Positions 12,389 to 21,256 of a stretch of 64,000 nt of DNA are shown here, piece after piece (within the stretch, counting starts at the first letter, position 1; the number at the start of each line of letters is the position of its first letter). A program made the translations under genes and the position numbers. This stretch comes from a virus. Under the pieces are notes generated by a model. The model was not told the DNA's origin. It worked only from the letters and a program-made list of their open reading frames with translations, and did not search any database. The stretch covers positions 1 to 64,000 of the IMG/VR virus record IMGVR_UViG_3300028920_000038; one strand, written 5' to 3'.

Positions 12389-13798
12389 TCAAATTTTTGT
12401 TACTTTCCACATACCGTATGAAGTTTCTTTTGAGGATATCAAATTTGGCACTTCATTCCAGTTAACATTACTTCTTCTGTCTAATAAATCCTGAGAGGAT
12501 TGAACAGCAAACGATAAAGAATCGATTGTGTCATCGTGAGATCCTCTAGGAAAAGACGCTATTTCATCTATCCAATGAGTTAATCTTGGATTTATAGAAA
12601 TCCTACCAGTTTCAAATAGTAAGGATAATCTTTGAACTCTAGACATTCTATCATTAACCACTGAAGATTTTATTGGTATGATAGGTAAACTTGGATTCTT
12701 TTCAATTAAATCTTCTACTATTAATTTTTGTTGAGCAGCTTGCTCTACTCCTATTCTAATAGGGGTCCACTTCTGATCCAATTCATTAATAGTTTGAAAT
12801 TGTCTAGATAAGGTCAAATGACCTCTGTATCCATCAACAAGACTTACAAATCCATCATTAATAGTTATGACAGATATTGCGAAGTAATCGCTGTCTTCTC
12901 CTGATGATGCGAAGTCTACTCCCATATAAGATTTGAATGGTGCTGCAGGAATTTTATATATTTCCTTCGCATTTTCTATCCATTCCCATTTTATGGGAGC
13001 TTCTTCTTCTGAGATAAATTCATTCTGGTATTGCATCATAAAGCTTACATTACCATATGAATTTTTAATTTCTAATAGTTTTTCATATGACCATCTATCT
13101 GGCCATAGCACTTCTGCTTCTTCATCTTCTGTAGGCTCTTTAATTAGAGCTACATATTTCTTATTTATGTAATTAGGTAAACTTTCAAAGTAACTGTGAA
13201 TATCAGATTGATGCCATTTGGTACCAATGGATATCACTTTTCCATCTGGTTCAAGCATTGGCATAAGAGTCTGATTAAACCATCTTACAAGTTCTCTTCT
13301 ACGATGTTCGGTTCTTGAATTCTGTTGATCTGTTACATCGTCTAGAATAATAAGATCGTAATGTCCTCCAACCATAGAGGAAGTTACACCCAAAACCTGT
13401 AAGGTAGGTTCTTTAATACTCGATGAAGCTCCTTTTACTCTTATAGCAGATCTAGACCAATCAAGATGACTTTTCTGTTGTCCATATAATTCTGTTAATT
13501 TTTCGTTTGTCTCTAAATGTTTTTGTATAAGAGACATTATCTCATTAGCTTTATCTTGATTAATTGTAACTAGAAGAATTCGCACATTTGGATTTGTGAC
13601 TATTCTCCATATTACATAAGCGCTAACTATAAAAGTTTTTCCATGTCCTCTAGGAGCTAATAATGATATGTGAGAATTATTCTCAAATAAATCTAACCAT
13701 TCCTGGTGAAAATTTACGCATTGTAATCCTAGAATATCAGTCGTAAATAATATAGGATCAGTTGAATACTTTAAGAGTTTCTTTATATCTGAAGTCAT
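12389..13798 (-). CDS. terL: Terminase large subunit
   Basis: Walker A APRGHGKT, Walker B LIILDD, coupling motif IGT, nuclease GVDFA and HDDTIDS. Confidence 0.95.
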   Translation of the reverse strand: MTSDIKKLLKYSTDPILFTTDILGLQCVNFHQEWLDLFENNSHISLLAPRGHGKTFIVSAYVIWRIVTNPNVRILLVTINQDKANEIMSLIQKHLETNEKLTELYGQQKSHLDWSRSAIRVKGASSSIKEPTLQVLGVTSSMVGGHYDLIILDDVTDQQNSRTEHRRRELVRWFNQTLMPMLEPDGKVISIGTKWHQSDIHSYFESLPNYINKKYVALIKEPTEDEEAEVLWPDRWSYEKLLEIKNSYGNVSFMMQYQNEFISEEEAPIKWEWIENAKEIYKIPAAPFKSYMGVDFASSGEDSDYFAISVITINDGFVSLVDGYRGHLTLSRQFQTINELDQKWTPIRIGVEQAAQQKLIVEDLIEKNPSLPIIPIKSSVVNDRMSRVQRLSLLFETGRISINPRLTHWIDEIASFPRGSHDDTIDSLSFAVQSSQDLLDRRSNVNWNEVPNLISSKETSYGMWKVTKI

Positions 13799-14443: not shown

Positions 14444-15001
14444 TTATATCTCCTCCACAAGTTTTGAGATTTTGGCTTTACATTTTGGACATAGAGAATT
14501 TACAAAGTTAAGAAGGAGGTTTTTGACATGAATTTCCTTCTTGAGATTCACATTATAAATAGTATTTGCTCGTCTCTCACCATATTGCTTTAATGAGACT
14601 TGGTTCTTTAACATTTGATTTAAGTTATCTCTAACTTCTTTGATAGCTTTTAATTTCACATTATAATCTTGAGATCCTTCTTCTATATCTTTCAATATAA
14701 TAATTGACTTCTCATAAAGTTCTTTAGTCTTTTCGTGGATATCATCCACTTCATCCCGATACATCTCTGTAAAATCCTTAACTGGATCTTTACCTTCTGT
14801 AACTTCTCCCTGCAACTCCTTTTCTTCAGCATTCCTTATATATCGAGATATCGACATTCCCGATAAATTTTTCAGGGAATGAATTTCAGGATGATTATCG
14901 CTAATTCGCTTAGCAATATCATGAACGCTATAATTCATTTCACGCAACTGCTTTACTTCGTCTTCCAAATTATATTGGATTATCTTGTTTTCTTTACTCA
15001 T
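14444..15001 (-). CDS. Probable terminase small subunit
   Basis: First gene of the late operon upstream of TerL; N-terminal HTH-like segment, helical/coiled-coil middle, C-terminal CPKC. Mostly a positional call. Confidence 0.55.
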   Translation of the reverse strand: MSKENKIIQYNLEDEVKQLREMNYSVHDIAKRISDNHPEIHSLKNLSGMSISRYIRNAEEKELQGEVTEGKDPVKDFTEMYRDEVDDIHEKTKELYEKSIIILKDIEEGSQDYNVKLKAIKEVRDNLNQMLKNQVSLKQYGERRANTIYNVNLKKEIHVKNLLLNFVNSLCPKCKAKISKLVEEI

Positions 15002-15212: not shown

Positions 15213-15742
15213 GGGGAACTGCATATTTTTAGCGTAATTTGGGCTATTTTGAGGGCTAGAGTTTTCTCACGTAAGCCATGTGAAATAGGTACGTTTTTTG
15301 TACTTTTTCTTATATAGTAGATAGAAAAAAGTACAGGTAATTGATTTTGGGATTTCGTTATAGTATGGGGAGATAACTAAGCAGTATTTTATCCGACCAT
15401 TTTTATTAACATCTTTTTATGTTTTATATTAGATATTTATATTTGATTAATTAGATTAGAATAATAGTCTTGATAAGGTATGACATACCACGGCAGATTA
15501 TTCTATATTATTCTTCTATATTTATTTAACCTGAAAGTATATTTAACGTGCTAGATTTTGTCAATAGTATACTTAACAGTTGAAAATGTAATATCAATAT
15601 TCTGAATTAAGTTTTTAGATTTCATTTTTTTCAATCTTTATCTTCTTCTTGATATACTGTATAATGGGACTCGTGTCCCACACATTGATCAATTTTTATT
15701 ATTCAACCACGCAGATATTAATCCCTCCTGTTGCCCTTCGAG

Positions 15743-15759
15743 ACCGAAAGGTTTATATA
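15743..15759 (+). promoter_or_regulatory. Archaeal BRE+TATA promoter (leaderless HNH gene)
   Basis: ACCGAAAG-G-TTTATATA about 24 nt upstream of the ATG at 15783. Confidence 0.7.
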
Positions 15760-15779
15760 CCCACCGTGGTATATAGGGA

Positions 15780-16151
15780 TTGATGAATATGGAAACCACA
15801 AACCTAAACCCACAAGAAGCAAACGACCTGCATCGAGCAGGAATATTGATAAGAGCAACCAATGGAATTTTTATTAATTCCTCTGGATATAAAACAATCA
15901 AAACAAAAAGACAATCTTCTGTCTTACCTGATAAGATTGTTAATGTCCATAAAGTACTCGGACTCTTAAAGTGTGTAGACCTAGGACTCATAGAGTCTAT
16001 ACAAAAAGGCTTTGAAATTACGAAAAAATACAAGCTTGAAACCCATCACAAGAATGGTAATAAAGAAGACAACAGAATTGAAAACATCGAGCCATTCTTA
16101 ACACGCTATCAACACAACGTATTAAACTATAAAACACTTCGAGGTGATTAA
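15780..16151 (+). CDS. HNH endonuclease
   Basis: VHK...ETHHKNGNKEDNRIENIE...QHN (HNH_3-type motif). Confidence 0.85.
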   Translation: MMNMETTNLNPQEANDLHRAGILIRATNGIFINSSGYKTIKTKRQSSVLPDKIVNVHKVLGLLKCVDLGLIESIQKGFEITKKYKLETHHKNGNKEDNRIENIEPFLTRYQHNVLNYKTLRGD

Positions 16152-16458
16152 AATTACCTCTTTCTCCTTTTACCACGTCAAGAGCAAATTCAGAAAAAGA
16201 AAGGATGTATTAAGCTTTCTTAACGATGTCTTCGAGCCGTACTCTTTCAGACACACAATATTTACAGCAATCGACTTTAAAAAAGGAAAAAGACAAATCG
16301 CAGAACATTCAGGAGTTTATCTCGAGGGATTCAAGTTAAAAGAAACAGATAATGGGATTCTAGTTAAAATCCCCAAGAATGTAGCTGAAGATGTCGAGGA
16401 CAAATTTTATACAACACAAAACAAATATGGGATTCTCTGGGAGGAAATCTCCCATTAA
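16144..16458 (+). CDS. Hypothetical protein
   Basis: ORF track; GAGGTGA SD, true start possibly ATT at 16153. Confidence 0.55.
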   Translation: MIKITSFSFYHVKSKFRKRKDVLSFLNDVFEPYSFRHTIFTAIDFKKGKRQIAEHSGVYLEGFKLKETDNGILVKIPKNVAEDVEDKFYTTQNKYGILWEEISH

Positions 16459-16639
16459 TTTTTATGGAGGAATAAAAATGAAATATAAAGACTGGAAGAA
16501 AAAATATATAATGTTACATCTAGACCCAGAATTATACTTTGACAATGAATATATAAACAGATATATAGTATTAACACATAAAGAACTCGATTCTCTAATT
16601 AAAAAGAGAAAGTATAGAACTGATATTCTAGATGACTAA

Positions 16640-16652
16640 TCTTTTTTTTTAT
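16640..16652 (+). terminator. Oligo-T terminator-like tract
   Basis: T9 run immediately after the stop of the 16478-16639 gene. Confidence 0.45.
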
Positions 16653-16657
16653 ATTGC

Positions 16658-16785
16658 CGTGGGACTCACGTGAGAAATGTTAGCATGGCTCATACATGTC
16701 CCACATGCATGGGCGACCATGCTAGACATTAACATGCATGGCCCATGACACGTGTTAGCACGGATCAAGATAACAATTAGCATGA
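16658..16785. repeat. CATG/GTGGGAC/GCTAGAC-rich repeat block 1
   Basis: GTGGGAC, GTCCCAC, CATGCTAGAC and TGTTAGCA(T/C)GG units in a GC-elevated island. Confidence 0.85.
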
Positions 16786-16860
16786 TATATATAAAAATAA
16801 TTAAATTAAATATATTAATATAAAAAAGAAAAAAAGAAAGAGAGGATTATAAATATAATT

Positions 16861-17139
16861 TTATAATCCAAGTCCAGATAATGGGTTAGCCATTTGACGC
16901 TTTGCGACAGCAACCATATACGCAAGTTCACGCTTGTCCATAATCTCCTCGAGAGCTTGTACTTCACAAGAGGTTTTTGTACCAAATTCCTGCTCAAGCT
17001 CTGAAATGCGTTTTACTAGTTGCTCGATTTTGTGGTCAAAGGTTACTTTGTCTACACCGCAGGCATCGTGCATTTTTTCTGCGAAATGGTCAAATTCTGG
17101 GAAATCATCATCCAAGTTTTTCACCTCCTTTTTTGTCAT
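16861..17139 (-). CDS. Hypothetical protein (92 aa, MTKKEV...), leaderless
   Basis: Track ORF trimmed to the ATG at 17139, 22 nt downstream of a minus-strand BRE/TATA. Confidence 0.6.
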   Translation of the reverse strand: MTKKEVKNLDDDFPEFDHFAEKMHDACGVDKVTFDHKIEQLVKRISELEQEFGTKTSCEVQALEEIMDKRELAYMVAVAKRQMANPLSGLGL

Positions 17140-17159
17140 AGTTAGTAATAGGTTAGGGA

Positions 17160-17454
17160 GTATATAAATGTTTCCTATAGAGAATATAGTGTGCTCAATA
17201 GTAGCATGCGTGTCATTGTCTAGCATGGCTGCATGCATCCAGCGTGGGACACGCATGTCAATTGCTAACATGGTGCATGGATCAATGCCGTGCTACATGT
17301 TAACATGGATCAGTGTAGTCCCACATGCACCATGCATGCATGCTACATGTTAGCACGGTACATACCAGCATGGACCATGACACATGTTAACATACTACAT
17401 ACTACCGTGCTAATATTGAGCACTATAGAGAATATATAGGAAAGTATTATATAC
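17160..17454. repeat. Repeat block 2 flanked by a 41-nt imperfect inverted repeat containing divergent TATA promoters
   Basis: Arms 17160-17200 and 17414-17454 match in GTATATAA, TTTCCTATA and GTGCTCAATA with identical spacing; interior is CATG-rich. Confidence 0.8.
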
Positions 17455-17475
17455 TAGTGAATACATGTATATATT

Positions 17476-17946
17476 ATGGAACAAAAAGACTTGGAGAAAA
17501 TCGCAAATATGGTTGCGAATATTCTCGAGAAAGCAGGTGAAAAACCAACAGAAGAAAAACCACAACCACAACAAGAAATGAGTTACACTGATGGTATGAC
17601 AATGATTAGCAAGATGTCAGCTGTGGATTTAATAAAAACATTTGGACACATTGATAAAGAGCAACCGTTCTTTATACAGAGTAAAACCCTAAAAAAATTC
17701 TTTAAGGAGAATAATATTAAAGGGTTGCCGTGGATTCGATACGATATTAATATCGACAGAATTATAAAAATCGCTGACTATCGAAAGCTGACTAAAAAAT
17801 CCAGAGCAACACTGAAGAAATCCTGTTTAAAATATTTAAATGACAGGATAAAAGCCGTGAGAAACCTTGACATATCTGACAAACAAAAAGAGCATCGCAT
17901 CAACAACCTAGAAAAAGCAGTACACAAAATCGGTGATGACCTATAA
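17476..17946 (+). CDS. Hypothetical basic protein (156 aa), leaderless
   Basis: ATG about 23 nt after GGAAAGTATTATATA. Confidence 0.7.
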   Translation: MEQKDLEKIANMVANILEKAGEKPTEEKPQPQQEMSYTDGMTMISKMSAVDLIKTFGHIDKEQPFFIQSKTLKKFFKENNIKGLPWIRYDINIDRIIKIADYRKLTKKSRATLKKSCLKYLNDRIKAVRNLDISDKQKEHRINNLEKAVHKIGDDL

Positions 17947-17989
17947 AAAAAGAGGAGCACGAATTTATGAACGCATTAATATTAAACTT

Positions 17990-18016
17990 GAGGGATAAAA
18001 TCCCTCCCTCTTTTAT
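17990..18016 (+). terminator. Hairpin + T-rich terminator-like element
   Basis: GAGGGAT-AAA-ATCCCTC followed by CCTCTTTTATTT. Confidence 0.45.
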
Positions 18017-18059
18017 TTCGCTGGTATTTATATTAATGGAGATATTTAATTGAGGAGGC

Positions 18060-18630
18060 GTGCTAATTGTTAGCATGGCACAGAGTAGCATGGATCATGG
18101 GCCATGTTAGTGTGTGACATGTTAGCGTGTGGCATGTTAGCATGGAGCATGGATCATGCATGGTTGTGGGACCTGCATGCTACGTGTTACCATGGATCAT
18201 GATAGCATGGATCAGTGGGACTGGGTCCCACAGCGTGACATTATCATGCATGCAAGCATGCTAGACATTATCACTCATGGCTGGATCATGGATCCGTGCT
18301 AGACATTCTCATGCATACTACTATGTGACACTATATCACGCGATACGCGGGCGTGCTAGAGATTGTCACGCGTGCTAGATAATAGCTGGCACTGTGGGAC
18401 TGCCATGCTAGACGTTGTCACTCATGCATGTGCCATGTTAACACGGACCATGTTAGCAGGTCGCACACGGGTCCCACACCGTGCTAGACTATATCATGCA
18501 TGGGCGTGCTAGACAGTGTCACGCAAGGCTGTGGGACTCGGCTGACAAGTGTTAGCATGGTGCATGCTACCGTGTAGCATACTAACACGCCTCATGATAA
18601 CGTGTGTCATACTAACATTGCACATGACAT
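18060..18630. repeat. CATG/GTGGGAC/GCTAGAC-rich repeat block 3 (largest)
   Basis: About 30 CATG by hand count; GTGGGAC/GTCCCAC x6 including the palindrome GTGGGACTGGGTCCCAC; GCTAGA x7; non-coding. Confidence 0.9.
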
Positions 18631-19520
18631 ATATAAAAACATATAAATATAAATCATTTATATATAAGTGATTTTAATTAAACCATAAAAATAATTGTGA
18701 ATTATATAAAAACCACTTTAATAATGTGCAATTCTATAAAAATAGCCCTATAAAACACTAATATAATAGTGAAAAATATAAAAACCCTGAAATAAAATAC
18801 TAATATAGGGGGTAATTCTATAAAAATGGATGAATATTAAGTGCCGTTAATCAATTAACACTACTTAATATAGGGGATTTATATAAAAATACCAGCATTT
18901 TTTACTCAACAGGAGAAGATATATATAAAAATATATATAAGCTATCTACGTGAAAGATATATAATTATATATATAAATTAGGGGTTTGTGAAATTAATAT
19001 GGACATTAATATATATTATGAACGCATATATAAATACAAAATGGAATCCTAATAATCTGAATTAAATGGTCGCATTAATATATAAAAAGCAAAATGGTTT
19101 CATATATTTCTGAATTAAGTTTATAAGGAGAAGGTATTAAGACCACCCACCTTATAAAATTGCTCAATTTTTACGCATAGTAACTAATTTTCAGGGCATT
19201 TTTAAGCATAGTAACTAGGTAATTTAAAACGAAGGGTATAGGTAAGGGGTAGTATAATTTAGGGCTATTTGATAACATATTCATAAAGGAATTATATATG
19301 ATTAGCTACTCATTTTTGGGTAGATAATTAAGTAACAGATGAGATATACATATATGACTTAATATATTTAATATAAATTTACTATAATATTTCCTAAATA
19401 TTCCCTATATATTTTACTATATATATTTTAATATACATCCTTAATTCTTAACACATTACCTATCCTATATACTATACACCCTACATATAGAATAATCCCC
19501 ACACCTTAACACCACCCTTT
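18630..19520. other. Very AT-rich non-coding tract with recurrent TATAAAA boxes
   Basis: No ORFs; repeated (c/t)TATAAAA(A); abuts repeat block 3. Confidence 0.7.
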
Positions 19521-19787
19521 TATTTTATAAGACAACACATAGGGGAAAATGTTTTCTCCTCGGGTTTTTTATATTATAAATACCACTAGATTCATTATAA
19601 TTTGATAACGTAATAACGGATGATTTTTCCTTTATCTTATCAGGCATATATACCCTCATCGACAGGTTTAAGTACCACCTCCAACAATAAGGGGATGTCG
19701 GTAACGAAAAAGTTGCTGACAGGAGATATAATATGAACAGCAAAAAGAAAACCCAAGATATAAAGGCAGGTGTCGAACAGATAGTGT

Positions 19788-20023: not shown

Positions 20024-21256
20024 ATGATAGAAAAAGACAAAATGACCAGCATTATAGATGAGGCAATAGAAAAAGCACTGGATAAGGTGAGTAAAATACC
20101 AGAGGCAGAACGCAGTACAGTATTATCACCTGAAAAGCTCAAGCAATATGAGAACAGCAAAAAAGAAATGAGCTACGAGTATTATAATAAGGTACAATTA
20201 AAGAAAGGTGGTATAGATAAAAAAACTGGTGAACAGAAATATACTTTTACTGGGGTTACTGAAACACCAGAAGAAAAGAGACCTATGAAAAGAATTAAAA
20301 GCCCTAAACCTTCTGATGAAAAGAAATCAGTAGATAAAAAGCTGAATAAATTACAGTATGAATTAAAGCACAACCCAATCTCCCGAACAGAACAGGTTAT
20401 AAATGATATACCTAAATCATTGGATGAATATAGTGCATCACAGAAATTAAATATATATAAATATAATACATCCTATGGTAAAGAAAGGGAGAAGGTTATA
20501 GGTAATACTTCAATCGTCAGGTCTATTGAAAAAATAGCATCAAAGAATTTCGGTAGCATTGGGGATTACGATATAGATACAATTCCTAGGTCTTTAATAA
20601 GATGTAAAGGCACAGAGGTTACTTATATTACAGATGTCCACAAGATGAATAAAAATAAACAGTTAGTTAGCAGGAGATTCTGTTCTAAAGTATTATCTAC
20701 TTGGTGTTGGGCTATGGGTATAAAATATATTCCTTCTGATAGACATATAAATGGAATAGAATTATGGGGAATTAAAATACCTGGTATTAAAGAGGTCTTA
20801 ATTAATCCAACAGATTGTGGCTATATGATTAAGGATTTAATATTCCTGATGCGAAATAAAAGCTCAAGTATAGATGACCTGTTAGATGAATTAAGAAAGG
20901 GAAATATATCTCATCAATTATATGATGTTATAATGCACAAGAGATATACAAAACAAACAACTGTTATTAATATAGTCAATGATATTAAAGTAAAAATATC
21001 TTATCTATATAATTACAGTACATCTGATGTAGCTTGGGATTATACTAAATGGAATCCAGAATATCTGATTAAAATTCTGGACAGGTTACATTCAGGAGAA
21101 TACTTTACAGATATATTAGTACCTGCTATTATAGACCTCTGGAAATATCCTATTAAGTGTACTGATACAGGTTTAAAACAAATGACAGATGAAGAACATC
21201 AGAAGAATACAGATGATTACGATATTACCCAGTATGTATGGGAGAGAGAACAATAA
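20024..21256 (+). CDS. Hypothetical protein (410 aa)
   Basis: GAGGTG SD; no recognisable motif. Confidence 0.8.
   Translation: MIEKDKMTSIIDEAIEKALDKVSKIPEAERSTVLSPEKLKQYENSKKEMSYEYYNKVQLKKGGIDKKTGEQKYTFTGVTETPEEKRPMKRIKSPKPSDEKKSVDKKLNKLQYELKHNPISRTEQVINDIPKSLDEYSASQKLNIYKYNTSYGKEREKVIGNTSIVRSIEKIASKNFGSIGDYDIDTIPRSLIRCKGTEVTYITDVHKMNKNKQLVSRRFCSKVLSTWCWAMGIKYIPSDRHINGIELWGIKIPGIKEVLINPTDCGYMIKDLIFLMRNKSSSIDDLLDELRKGNISHQLYDVIMHKRYTKQTTVINIVNDIKVKISYLYNYSTSDVAWDYTKWNPEYLIKILDRLHSGEYFTDILVPAIIDLWKYPIKCTDTGLKQMTDEEHQKNTDDYDITQYVWEREQ

Follow-up and report, generated by a model that had tools for sequence, protein, structure and literature searches.

Three islands of clustered putative protein-binding sites in the control region of a large tailed virus, most likely of an archaeal host

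The DNA analysed here (the window, 64,000 nt) is the first 64 kb of the 137,847-bp linear IMG/VR record IMGVR_UViG_3300028920_000038 (G000; 31% GC, 87% complete by the CheckV estimate), which most likely belongs to a large tailed virus of an archaeal host. Between its two oppositely oriented gene blocks lies a control region (15.0-19.8 kb) containing three GC-elevated islands: island 1 (16658-16785), island 2 (17190-17420), and island 3 (18060-18630). We have little doubt that these islands are arrays of protein-binding sites. Our more specific reading, held with considerable reserve, is that they are operator arrays serving promoter control within the viral control region. The islands would then be dense clusters of operator-type sites for sequence-specific, probably dimeric, DNA-binding proteins and would together form a non-coding control region. 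The bound proteins would sit directly upstream of, or between, the B recognition element/TATA (BRE/TATA) boxes of the small, fast-evolving genes of the region, and cooperative filling of the arrays, possibly with looping between pairs of the word GTGGGAC, would switch these promoters on or off during infection. We infer protein binding, the identity of the binders, and the direction of regulation from the DNA sequence.

The GC content of islands 1, 2, and 3 (0.48, 0.46, and 0.50) is well above that of the genome (0.31), and each island is packed with CATG: 9 copies in island 1 compared with 0.5 expected from base composition, 16 in island 2 compared with 0.9, and 31 in island 3 compared with 2.2, or 56 in total compared with about 3.5, in islands of 0.13-0.57 kb that together make up 0.93 kb. 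A first-pass annotation, made by a model from the letters alone, had drawn the same three blocks and counted about 30 CATG in the third, where roughly 2 were expected; both the coordinates and the count are borne out. When the whole record was scanned, 200-bp bins with at least seven CATG were found in the islands only, and all six copies of TGTTAGCAYGG in the record lie inside islands on the + strand. GTGGGAC and its complement GTCCCAC occur 12 times in the window (1.4 expected; none of 100 shuffles reached 12), and 11 of these copies fall in 15675-18537, a clustering which the annotation had also described correctly. The islands are far beyond chance.

They are also genuine sequence and untranslated. 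Three findings had been named in advance as fatal to the annotation, namely an assembly artefact, translation of the region, and absence from relatives, and none of them was obtained. An artefact is excluded because equivalent islands are present in independent assemblies of other samples. No open reading frame (ORF) spans an island, those that start in islands reach at most 61 aa, and the island ORFs of at least 45 aa that were queried had no protein-level match in the relatives. An apparent 136-aa ORF (16861-17271) is a 92-aa gene read back to an upstream ATG.

The four motifs originally listed reduce to three site classes on one lattice. The common element is a CRYG core (C[AG]TG / CA[CT]G) placed on a 15-bp lattice with 7/8-bp alternation, the recurrent core spacings being 7 bp (n = 20), 8 bp (n = 14), 15 bp (n = 29), 22/23 bp (n = 14 + 12), 30 bp (n = 17), 37/38 bp (n = 13 + 9), and 45 bp (n = 10). 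In 300 dinucleotide shuffles about 1 per spacing was found, and no shuffle reached the observed counts; the spacing, which the annotation had called irregular, is in fact strongly periodic. The first class, P12, is a 12-bp quasi-palindrome, CRTG-YTAR-CAYG, which with a 3-bp spacer gives the 15-bp unit (about 1.5 helical turns) that is repeated head to tail. Allowing one mismatch, the P12 pattern CRTGYTARCAYG has 14 matches in the window, all in islands, where 0.66 are expected (none of 100 shuffles reached 14). The second class, M2, is an oriented unit of ~20 bp, RTGCTAGA-N3-TGTCAYGC, in which the outer cores stay 15 bp apart. The third class, M1, is the half-site GTGGGAC, arranged as tight dyads or as convergent pairs 39-77 bp apart, or 30-125 bp apart in the broader description of the class; the dyads, at 15666-15681 (GGGAC-TCGT-GTCCCAC, strandless) and 18215-18231, are the GGGAC palindromes that had been pointed out at first. 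Dyad symmetry or half-site form, as would fit dimeric regulators, is thus displayed by P12 and by the M1 dyads and pairs, as well as by a co-varied dyad in a relative described below.

Island 1 has a convergent M1 pair (16659+/16698-), a strict M2 unit at 16719, and P12 units; island 2, an array of 231 bp, combines an M1 pair (17244+/17318-) with P12 and M2 units; and island 3, an array of 571 bp, has six M1 half-sites including the second dyad, P12 units that follow the 15-bp lattice, and a series of seven RTGCTAGA units (18258-18506) all pointing the same way. On maps of four viruses, normalised so that the early genes run rightward, RTGCTAGA points rightward in a ratio of 22:2 and TGTTAGCA in a ratio of 19:2, and GTGGGAC is balanced. 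Among 22 convergent GTGGGAC pairs, the flanks of partner arms are complementary at 2.5 of 6 nt, compared with 2.14 for non-partner arms; because partners are no more complementary than non-partners, the arms behave as independent half-sites, not as helices. A reading of these pairs as miniature inverted-repeat transposable elements was rejected, as internal content and spacing vary and the arms share the 7-nt core only. Purine/pyrimidine alternation, which the annotation had singled out, is indeed raised in the islands (0.65-0.74 of steps compared with 0.47 genome-wide). It is no feature of its own, being a by-product of the CRYG cores, because long alternating runs are lacking; the longest unbroken run within the three islands is 13 nt, and a Z-DNA reading was rejected on the same ground.

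Relatives were found by TerL-based and pattern-based searches (G001, L041-L048; G002, L009; G003, L032), and the search for equivalent islands that had been proposed was successful: in six or more further metagenomic contigs, the same vocabulary of words occupies the same map position, from TerS to the start of the early genes. G001 (155 kb, roughly complete) and G002 (53.7 kb) are almost one virus, with a TerL 62% identical to that of the window, and the TerL of G003 (39 kb) is 57% identical. Another relative with the vocabulary, L054, has a GC content of 24%, and contigs L119/L120, L121, L122, and L123 were located through the island-flanked protein described below. The words are confined to one locus in G000, G001, and G003, and they persist across viruses with TerL identities of 57-62% and local GC contents from 22% to 36%. 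Of the small ORFan genes interspersed with the islands, none is shared among relatives except that of the island-flanked protein. Regulatory words are thus conserved where the genes they would regulate diverge, and this combination of conserved words and diverged interspersed genes characterises binding sites, as opposed to coding sequence or a single RNA structure.

The synteny around the words is constant. TerL and TerS, both leftward, are followed by an HNH operon, an island, and small divergent genes with islands between them, and then by the last island, an AT-rich ORF-free tract (seen after the last island in G000, G003, and L119), and early genes including that of a conserved 410-aa protein (20024-21256, + strand), the right-hand syntenic anchor, with homologues in G001, G002, and G003 at E-values of 1e-52 to 1e-58. 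The sites span 3 kb in the window and about 6.4 kb in G001/G002. The G002 array at L009 6660-6900 is perfectly regular, its 24 cores being spaced almost exclusively by 7, 8, 15, 22/23, 30... bp. A more distant relative, L013 (TerL 60%), is without these words. In L013 (65-1320), a dyad GTTGGACC-N3-5-GGTCCAAC is found ~14 nt downstream of the TATA boxes of four promoters. This dyad is a co-varied, lineage-specific version of the M1 dyad in a repressor-type position, its placement being the classic one for an archaeal repressor operator. GGGAC, taken in the annotation as a type IIS restriction site, is therefore better read as the half-site of a conserved dyad operator.

The operator reading draws on the placement of sites relative to promoter-like boxes. 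In G002, an M2-type unit ends 0-8 nt before the BRE/TATA box of four small genes (L009 3553-3610, 4063-4119, 6467-6527, and 7105-7170), with the ATG ~22-32 nt past the box. In L119 and L032, CCGAAAGGTATATAA promoters are preceded by GTCCCAC at a distance of 3-45 nt. In the window, two divergent BRE/TATA boxes, each 22 nt from its ATG, bound a gap that island 2 occupies exactly: the left box (17162-17174, - strand) serves the 92-aa ORFan gene (16861-17139, - strand), whose product had no informative family match in Pfam or PHROG, and the right box, GGAAAGTATTATATAC (17439-17454, + strand), precedes the ATG at 17476. These two promoters are the arms of a 48-nt inverted repeat (17159-17206 / 17408-17455). 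Short, repeated distances between site and BRE/TATA box are therefore found at the four G002 promoters, at the L119 and L032 promoters, and at island 2. The first-pass annotation was right to see clustered sites for DNA-binding proteins at the junction of the transcription blocks, and missed this promoter-proximal operator role.

The gene to the right of island 2 encodes the island-flanked protein (IFP; 17476-17946, + strand), an all-alpha protein of 156 aa and the only conserved gene product inside the control region. Its family comprises 19 homologues (profile E-values of 1e-34 to 1e-71) without a Pfam match, the pairwise E-values being 1e-4 to the G003 homologue and 0.02 to that of G002. 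All contigs with an IFP gene have motif islands on at least one side of it, and most have them on both sides. The IFP subfamily of G003, L119, and L123 goes with islands that are almost entirely M1, and the other subfamily goes with P12 and M2 (and M1 where seen), a correlation that is confounded by phylogeny. An AlphaFold2 model of mediocre confidence (mean predicted local distance difference test score 64) shows a three-helix segment followed by a C-terminal helical hairpin. Comparison of the model with known structures by Foldseek and VIA-align returned generic helical hairpins only, the best Z of 7.8 being within background for helical models. Judging from its position, IFP is a candidate binder or regulator. 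In Pfam and PHROG scans of ~55 proteins, no regulator, initiator, ParA, integrase, or methyltransferase was recognised. The possibility that the words belong to a host regulon was also considered: in genome contigs (596 Gb), the M2 pattern gave 57 single matches, compared with a chance estimate of ~280 for its 16 specified bases, and none came with the vocabulary, so that there is no sign of such a regulon.

Several observations weigh against control of promoters as the role of the islands. Island 1 lies between the 3' ends of convergent genes, with a TATA-like box at its edge (16786-16800), and island 3, with ~40 sites in its 571 bp and a TATA-like box at its own edge (18628-18642), has no adjoining gene; both exceed the needs of promoter control. 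The strong orientation bias of two site classes suits iterons equally well. TATA-like strings are common in DNA of 31% GC, and a genome-wide statistic of the distance from BRE/TATA box to ATG, which is noisy owing to crude gene calls, gave no clean signal. No recognised DNA-binding domain was found by the above scans in or near the region, and IFP gave no informative fold match. Moreover, IFP subfamilies are 21-26% identical to the copy of the window, and yet GTGGGAC is invariant.

Comparable arrangements have been described in other archaeal viruses. In halovirus HF2, a conserved bidirectional promoter region is embedded in 12-bp repeats spaced 14-15 bp apart (PMC8707807). HF2 and other members of Haloferacalesvirus are, like the window virus, tailed viruses of archaea (most likely so in our case) with repeats at intergenic control points whose position is conserved among relatives, and the spacing of ~1.5 helical turns and the divergent promoters are also shared; HF2 has 3-4 repeats in ~50 bp (PMC8707807), whereas tens of units are found here in islands of 0.13-0.57 kb. 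The islands further differ in their three site classes and in their sequence, and for HF2 promoter activity has been measured. The two viruses are unrelated beyond class level, the family-B DNA polymerase (PolB) of the window virus being ~22-23% identical to those of haloviruses. In SIRV2 and other archaeal viruses, early genes share regulatory sequences around a strong BRE/TATA whereas their coding sequences diverge, and in crenarchaeal viruses inverted repeats next to the BRE were read as repressor sites, with Aca8 as the proposed repressor (PMC11065993). The window region resembles these in its small, fast-evolving ORFans and in regulatory DNA that is more conserved than the genes, but the SIRV2-type elements are solitary motifs the size of a promoter, located at the termini of rod-shaped virus genomes, and a winged helix-turn-helix regulator can be recognised (PMC11065993). 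The window virus, in contrast, is tailed and has long multi-site arrays at one internal locus and no recognisable regulator.

A replication origin, which the first-pass annotation had offered as one of its options, is a live rival to the operator reading, although we consider it the less probable of the two. The island 3 repeats, with their seven RTGCTAGA units and 15-bp arrays, would be iterons for a viral initiator, and the adjoining AT-rich tract would be the unwinding element. In iteron origins such as lambda ori and P1 oriR, and in the control regions of SV40 and papillomaviruses, co-oriented repeats stand beside an AT-rich tract, at the early/late divergence. The window region is similar in having co-oriented sites beside such a tract at a junction of divergent transcription, and promoter and origin functions may overlap; an origin and promoter control could be present side by side, as they are in the control regions of SV40 and papillomaviruses. 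A co-oriented repeat array of this kind is indeed present, given the RTGCTAGA series, the lattice, and the bias of the oriented words toward the early genes. The tract (18631-19780, ~1.1 kb) abuts island 3, is AT-rich and ORF-free with serial TATAAAA-type boxes, and carries repeats D9/D14; no other part of the record goes as long without a 50-aa ORF as 18092-19524, and the tract could be a promoter bank or an unwinding element. Its recurrence after the last island of relatives is also in keeping with an origin.

Further support for an origin comes from the position and the GC skew. The locus is the divergence point of the genome, with the rightward block at 19.8-84.2 kb and the leftward block making up the rest, and the cumulative GC skew is lowest on a flat plateau at 15.0-19.75 kb and highest at 84.2 kb. 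For + strand genes within the region the GC skew is near zero (-0.04 and +0.05), compared with +0.27 +/- 0.09 for 88 genes of the + block, and those just right of the AT-rich tract are strongly positive, with the same pattern in G002 and G003; the switch in skew would therefore not be set by gene orientation alone. The record also encodes its own PolB, PriL, and RadA. On the other hand, the plateau covers the whole region without pinpointing island 3, gene orientation is a confounder, amino-acid composition could account for the odd skew of a few small genes, and the AT-rich tract is not the lowest-GC 600 bp of G000. Unlike in iteron origins, no initiator gene was identified: the record had no match to Cdc6_C, and the neighbouring 410-aa protein gave no lead in Pfam, PHROG, or the ESM Atlas. 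Sites that are scattered over 3 kb in the window, and over the longer span in G001/G002, among genes and many promoters would be unusual for an origin.

A combination of the two readings is conceivable by analogy with SV40, and we regard it as rather unlikely. In such an origin-plus-enhancer hub, IFP would coat the 15-bp arrays, and the complex would fire replication at the AT-rich tract and time the early and late promoters; the CATG-rich sites would be kept despite genome-wide avoidance, possibly for methylation-dependent binding.

Packaging, partition, RNA genes, and a methylation switch or decoy are less likely than the operator and origin readings. The islands might be a packaging site (pac or cosB) at which the TerS-like protein binds the arrays and terminase is assembled, a proposal that we consider improbable. 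It agrees with there being one locus in each genome, on the upstream side of the TerS-like gene at a distance of 1.7-3.6 kb, with the conservation of TerS in all relatives, with HNH endonuclease genes beside TerS in G002 and G003 and close by in G000, and with the break of the G001 contig inside this region. HNH beside TerS goes with cos-type packaging in HK97-like phages. However, the pac and cosB sites that are known take up little DNA (about 0.1-0.3 kb) and are located within terS or immediately next to it, whereas here there are many islands, attached to promoters, the first of them 1.66 kb from terS with genes in between. The ends of G001 (1-655 and 154345-154999) overlap by 655 bp at 96.8% identity, so that its map is effectively closed; this overlap is within coding sequence and looks like the circular closure of a mixed population, not a physical end, and the G000 contig ends elsewhere.

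Less probable still is a centromere-like partition site or a silencing nucleoprotein filament, in which a small dimer would coat 4-bp boxes at a period of 7-8 bp, in the manner of ParG, omega, or ParR. The type Ib arrays of ParG and omega consist of 4-7-bp boxes every 7-8 bp, direct and inverted, coated cooperatively by small dimers, and these tetramer-box and heptad arrays act as both centromere and operator. Tetramer cores in the islands follow one another at 7/8-bp intervals in either orientation, the largest array (that of G002, above) counting 24 of them, but the likeness is one of geometry only. The box sequences differ, no CbiA-family (ParA-type) ATPase (PF01656) was found in the record (87% complete), the proteins scanned with Pfam included no ribbon-helix-helix or other centromere-binding protein, and the virus, which has no tyrosine integrase in the record, looks lytic from its gene content.

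Genes for structured non-coding RNAs, which GC-rich islands in AT-rich genomes often are, and CATG/GATC sites acting as a methylation-dependent switch or as a decoy to restriction or defence proteins of the host are the weakest of the alternatives, and we regard both as very improbable. The predicted folds of the islands are more stable than those of shuffles (z = -6.2, -5.6, and -2.7), but palindromic units would by themselves give such stability; scans for Rfam matches (E <= 1) and for tRNAs found none, and what is conserved is words in both orientations and shuffled order, with no alignable structure kept, no pair-specific complementarity beyond the 7-nt core, and no covariation. As for methylation, outside the islands CATG and GATC each fall short of the Markov expectation (observed/expected 0.61), and yet the islands hold their 56 CATG, which must therefore be kept against the genome trend for a reason. 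In G000 outside 15.5-18.65 kb, CTAG, GTAC, TGCA, and AATT are not clearly under-represented (0.85-1.04 of the Markov expectation), and the CATG/GATC deficit may be a trace of restriction by the host at these two sites. The conserved unit, however, extends beyond CATG and has CGTG/CACG variants, concentrated cleavable sites would harm the virus instead of protecting it, and the methylation sensor proposed in the annotation finds no viral component, the record having no match to the three DNA methyltransferase families searched (PF01555, PF02086, and PF00145). The decoy and the injection-stop signal, two further suggestions of the annotation, find no support.

An archaeal host is suggested by the presence of Alba, PriL, Rad51/RadA, and XPF in the record and by BRE/TATA-like boxes 22-32 nt from start codons without a Shine-Dalgarno sequence. 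The leftward genes (1-15 kb and 84.3-137.8 kb) include those of the portal, the Alba protein, TerL, and the TerS-like protein. The rightward block encodes PolB, a PriL-like primase subunit, SWIM-RadA, an XPF/ERCC4-HhH nuclease, and ribonucleotide reductase, and also holds a 20-kb glycan/phosphonate cluster. Judging from its own replication genes and the absence of an integrase in the record, the virus looks lytic. A DNA similarity search against GenBank phages gave no match, and a host search with TerL, ribonucleotide reductase, and IFP among 185,579 species genomes either found no relative or yielded nothing closer than distant matches to bacterial metagenome-assembled genomes. The nearest isolates are remote, namely ANMV-1 by TerL (26% identity) and Halorubrum tailed virus 25 by PolB (23%), and the lineage is thus one without an isolated virus. 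To our knowledge, a few haloviruses apart, almost nothing is known about the cis-regulatory and origin elements of tailed viruses of archaea. A lineage-wide cis vocabulary at one syntenic locus, with a conserved protein embedded in it, provides DNA probes and a candidate protein for binding experiments, and offers a way into the annotation of early promoters, and perhaps of the origin, in these viruses of 140-155 kb.

The left boundary of the control region is the gene of the TerS-like protein (14444-15001, - strand; 185 aa), which opens the leftward late/packaging operon. Small ORFs separate it from TerL (12389-13798; PHROG 38, E 1.6e-86), upstream of which it lies, and its product, kept in all relatives at 35-53% identity, is a putative TerS judging from its position. 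Rightward of it are an outlying M2 unit (CGTGCTAGATTTTGTCA..., 15547-15566, + strand) and the first M1 dyad, followed by the consensus BRE/TATA promoter CCGAAAGGTTTATATACC (15743-15760, + strand) of the rightward HNH operon (15783-16639; HNH_3 match, E 3.7e-5), of which near-identical copies are found in L054, L119, and L032. Islands 1 and 3 each terminate in CATGAYATATATAAAAA (repeat family D17).

Some minor observations were also made. A 34-nt element ending in TCTGAATTAA (family D15) occurs once at the left edge of the region (15577-15610) and twice at its right edge (19032-19065 and 19085-19118). HNH-type genes are located at 15783-16151 in the window, at L009 8414-8911 in G002, where the gene overlaps that of the TerS-like protein, and at L032 4114-4641 and 5255-5683. 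The glycan/phosphonate run (G000 64-84 kb; L112 1042-19503) contains the lowest-GC stretches of the genome and encodes a phosphoenolpyruvate mutase fused to a cytidylyltransferase, a radical SAM/SPASM protein, WbqC, a PIG-L deacetylase, FkbM-type and C-methyltransferases, several glycosyltransferases, epimerases/dehydratases, and a UDP-glucose dehydrogenase. G001, which is listed as linear in IMG/VR, is probably a closed or terminally redundant genome from a mixed population, with the junction inside the control region. A fourth conserved word, the palindrome TTAACGATCGTTAA, is absent from G000 and present in the control regions of G002 (L009 7845-7870), G003 (L032 5085, 6575, and 6940), and L119 (4700), often just upstream of a BRE/TATA box. 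Finally, a GC-rich, ORF-free stretch of ~110 nt in G003 (L032 7000-7115, minus strand) immediately follows a consensus CCGAAAGGTATATAAGG promoter and is a candidate gene for a small RNA.

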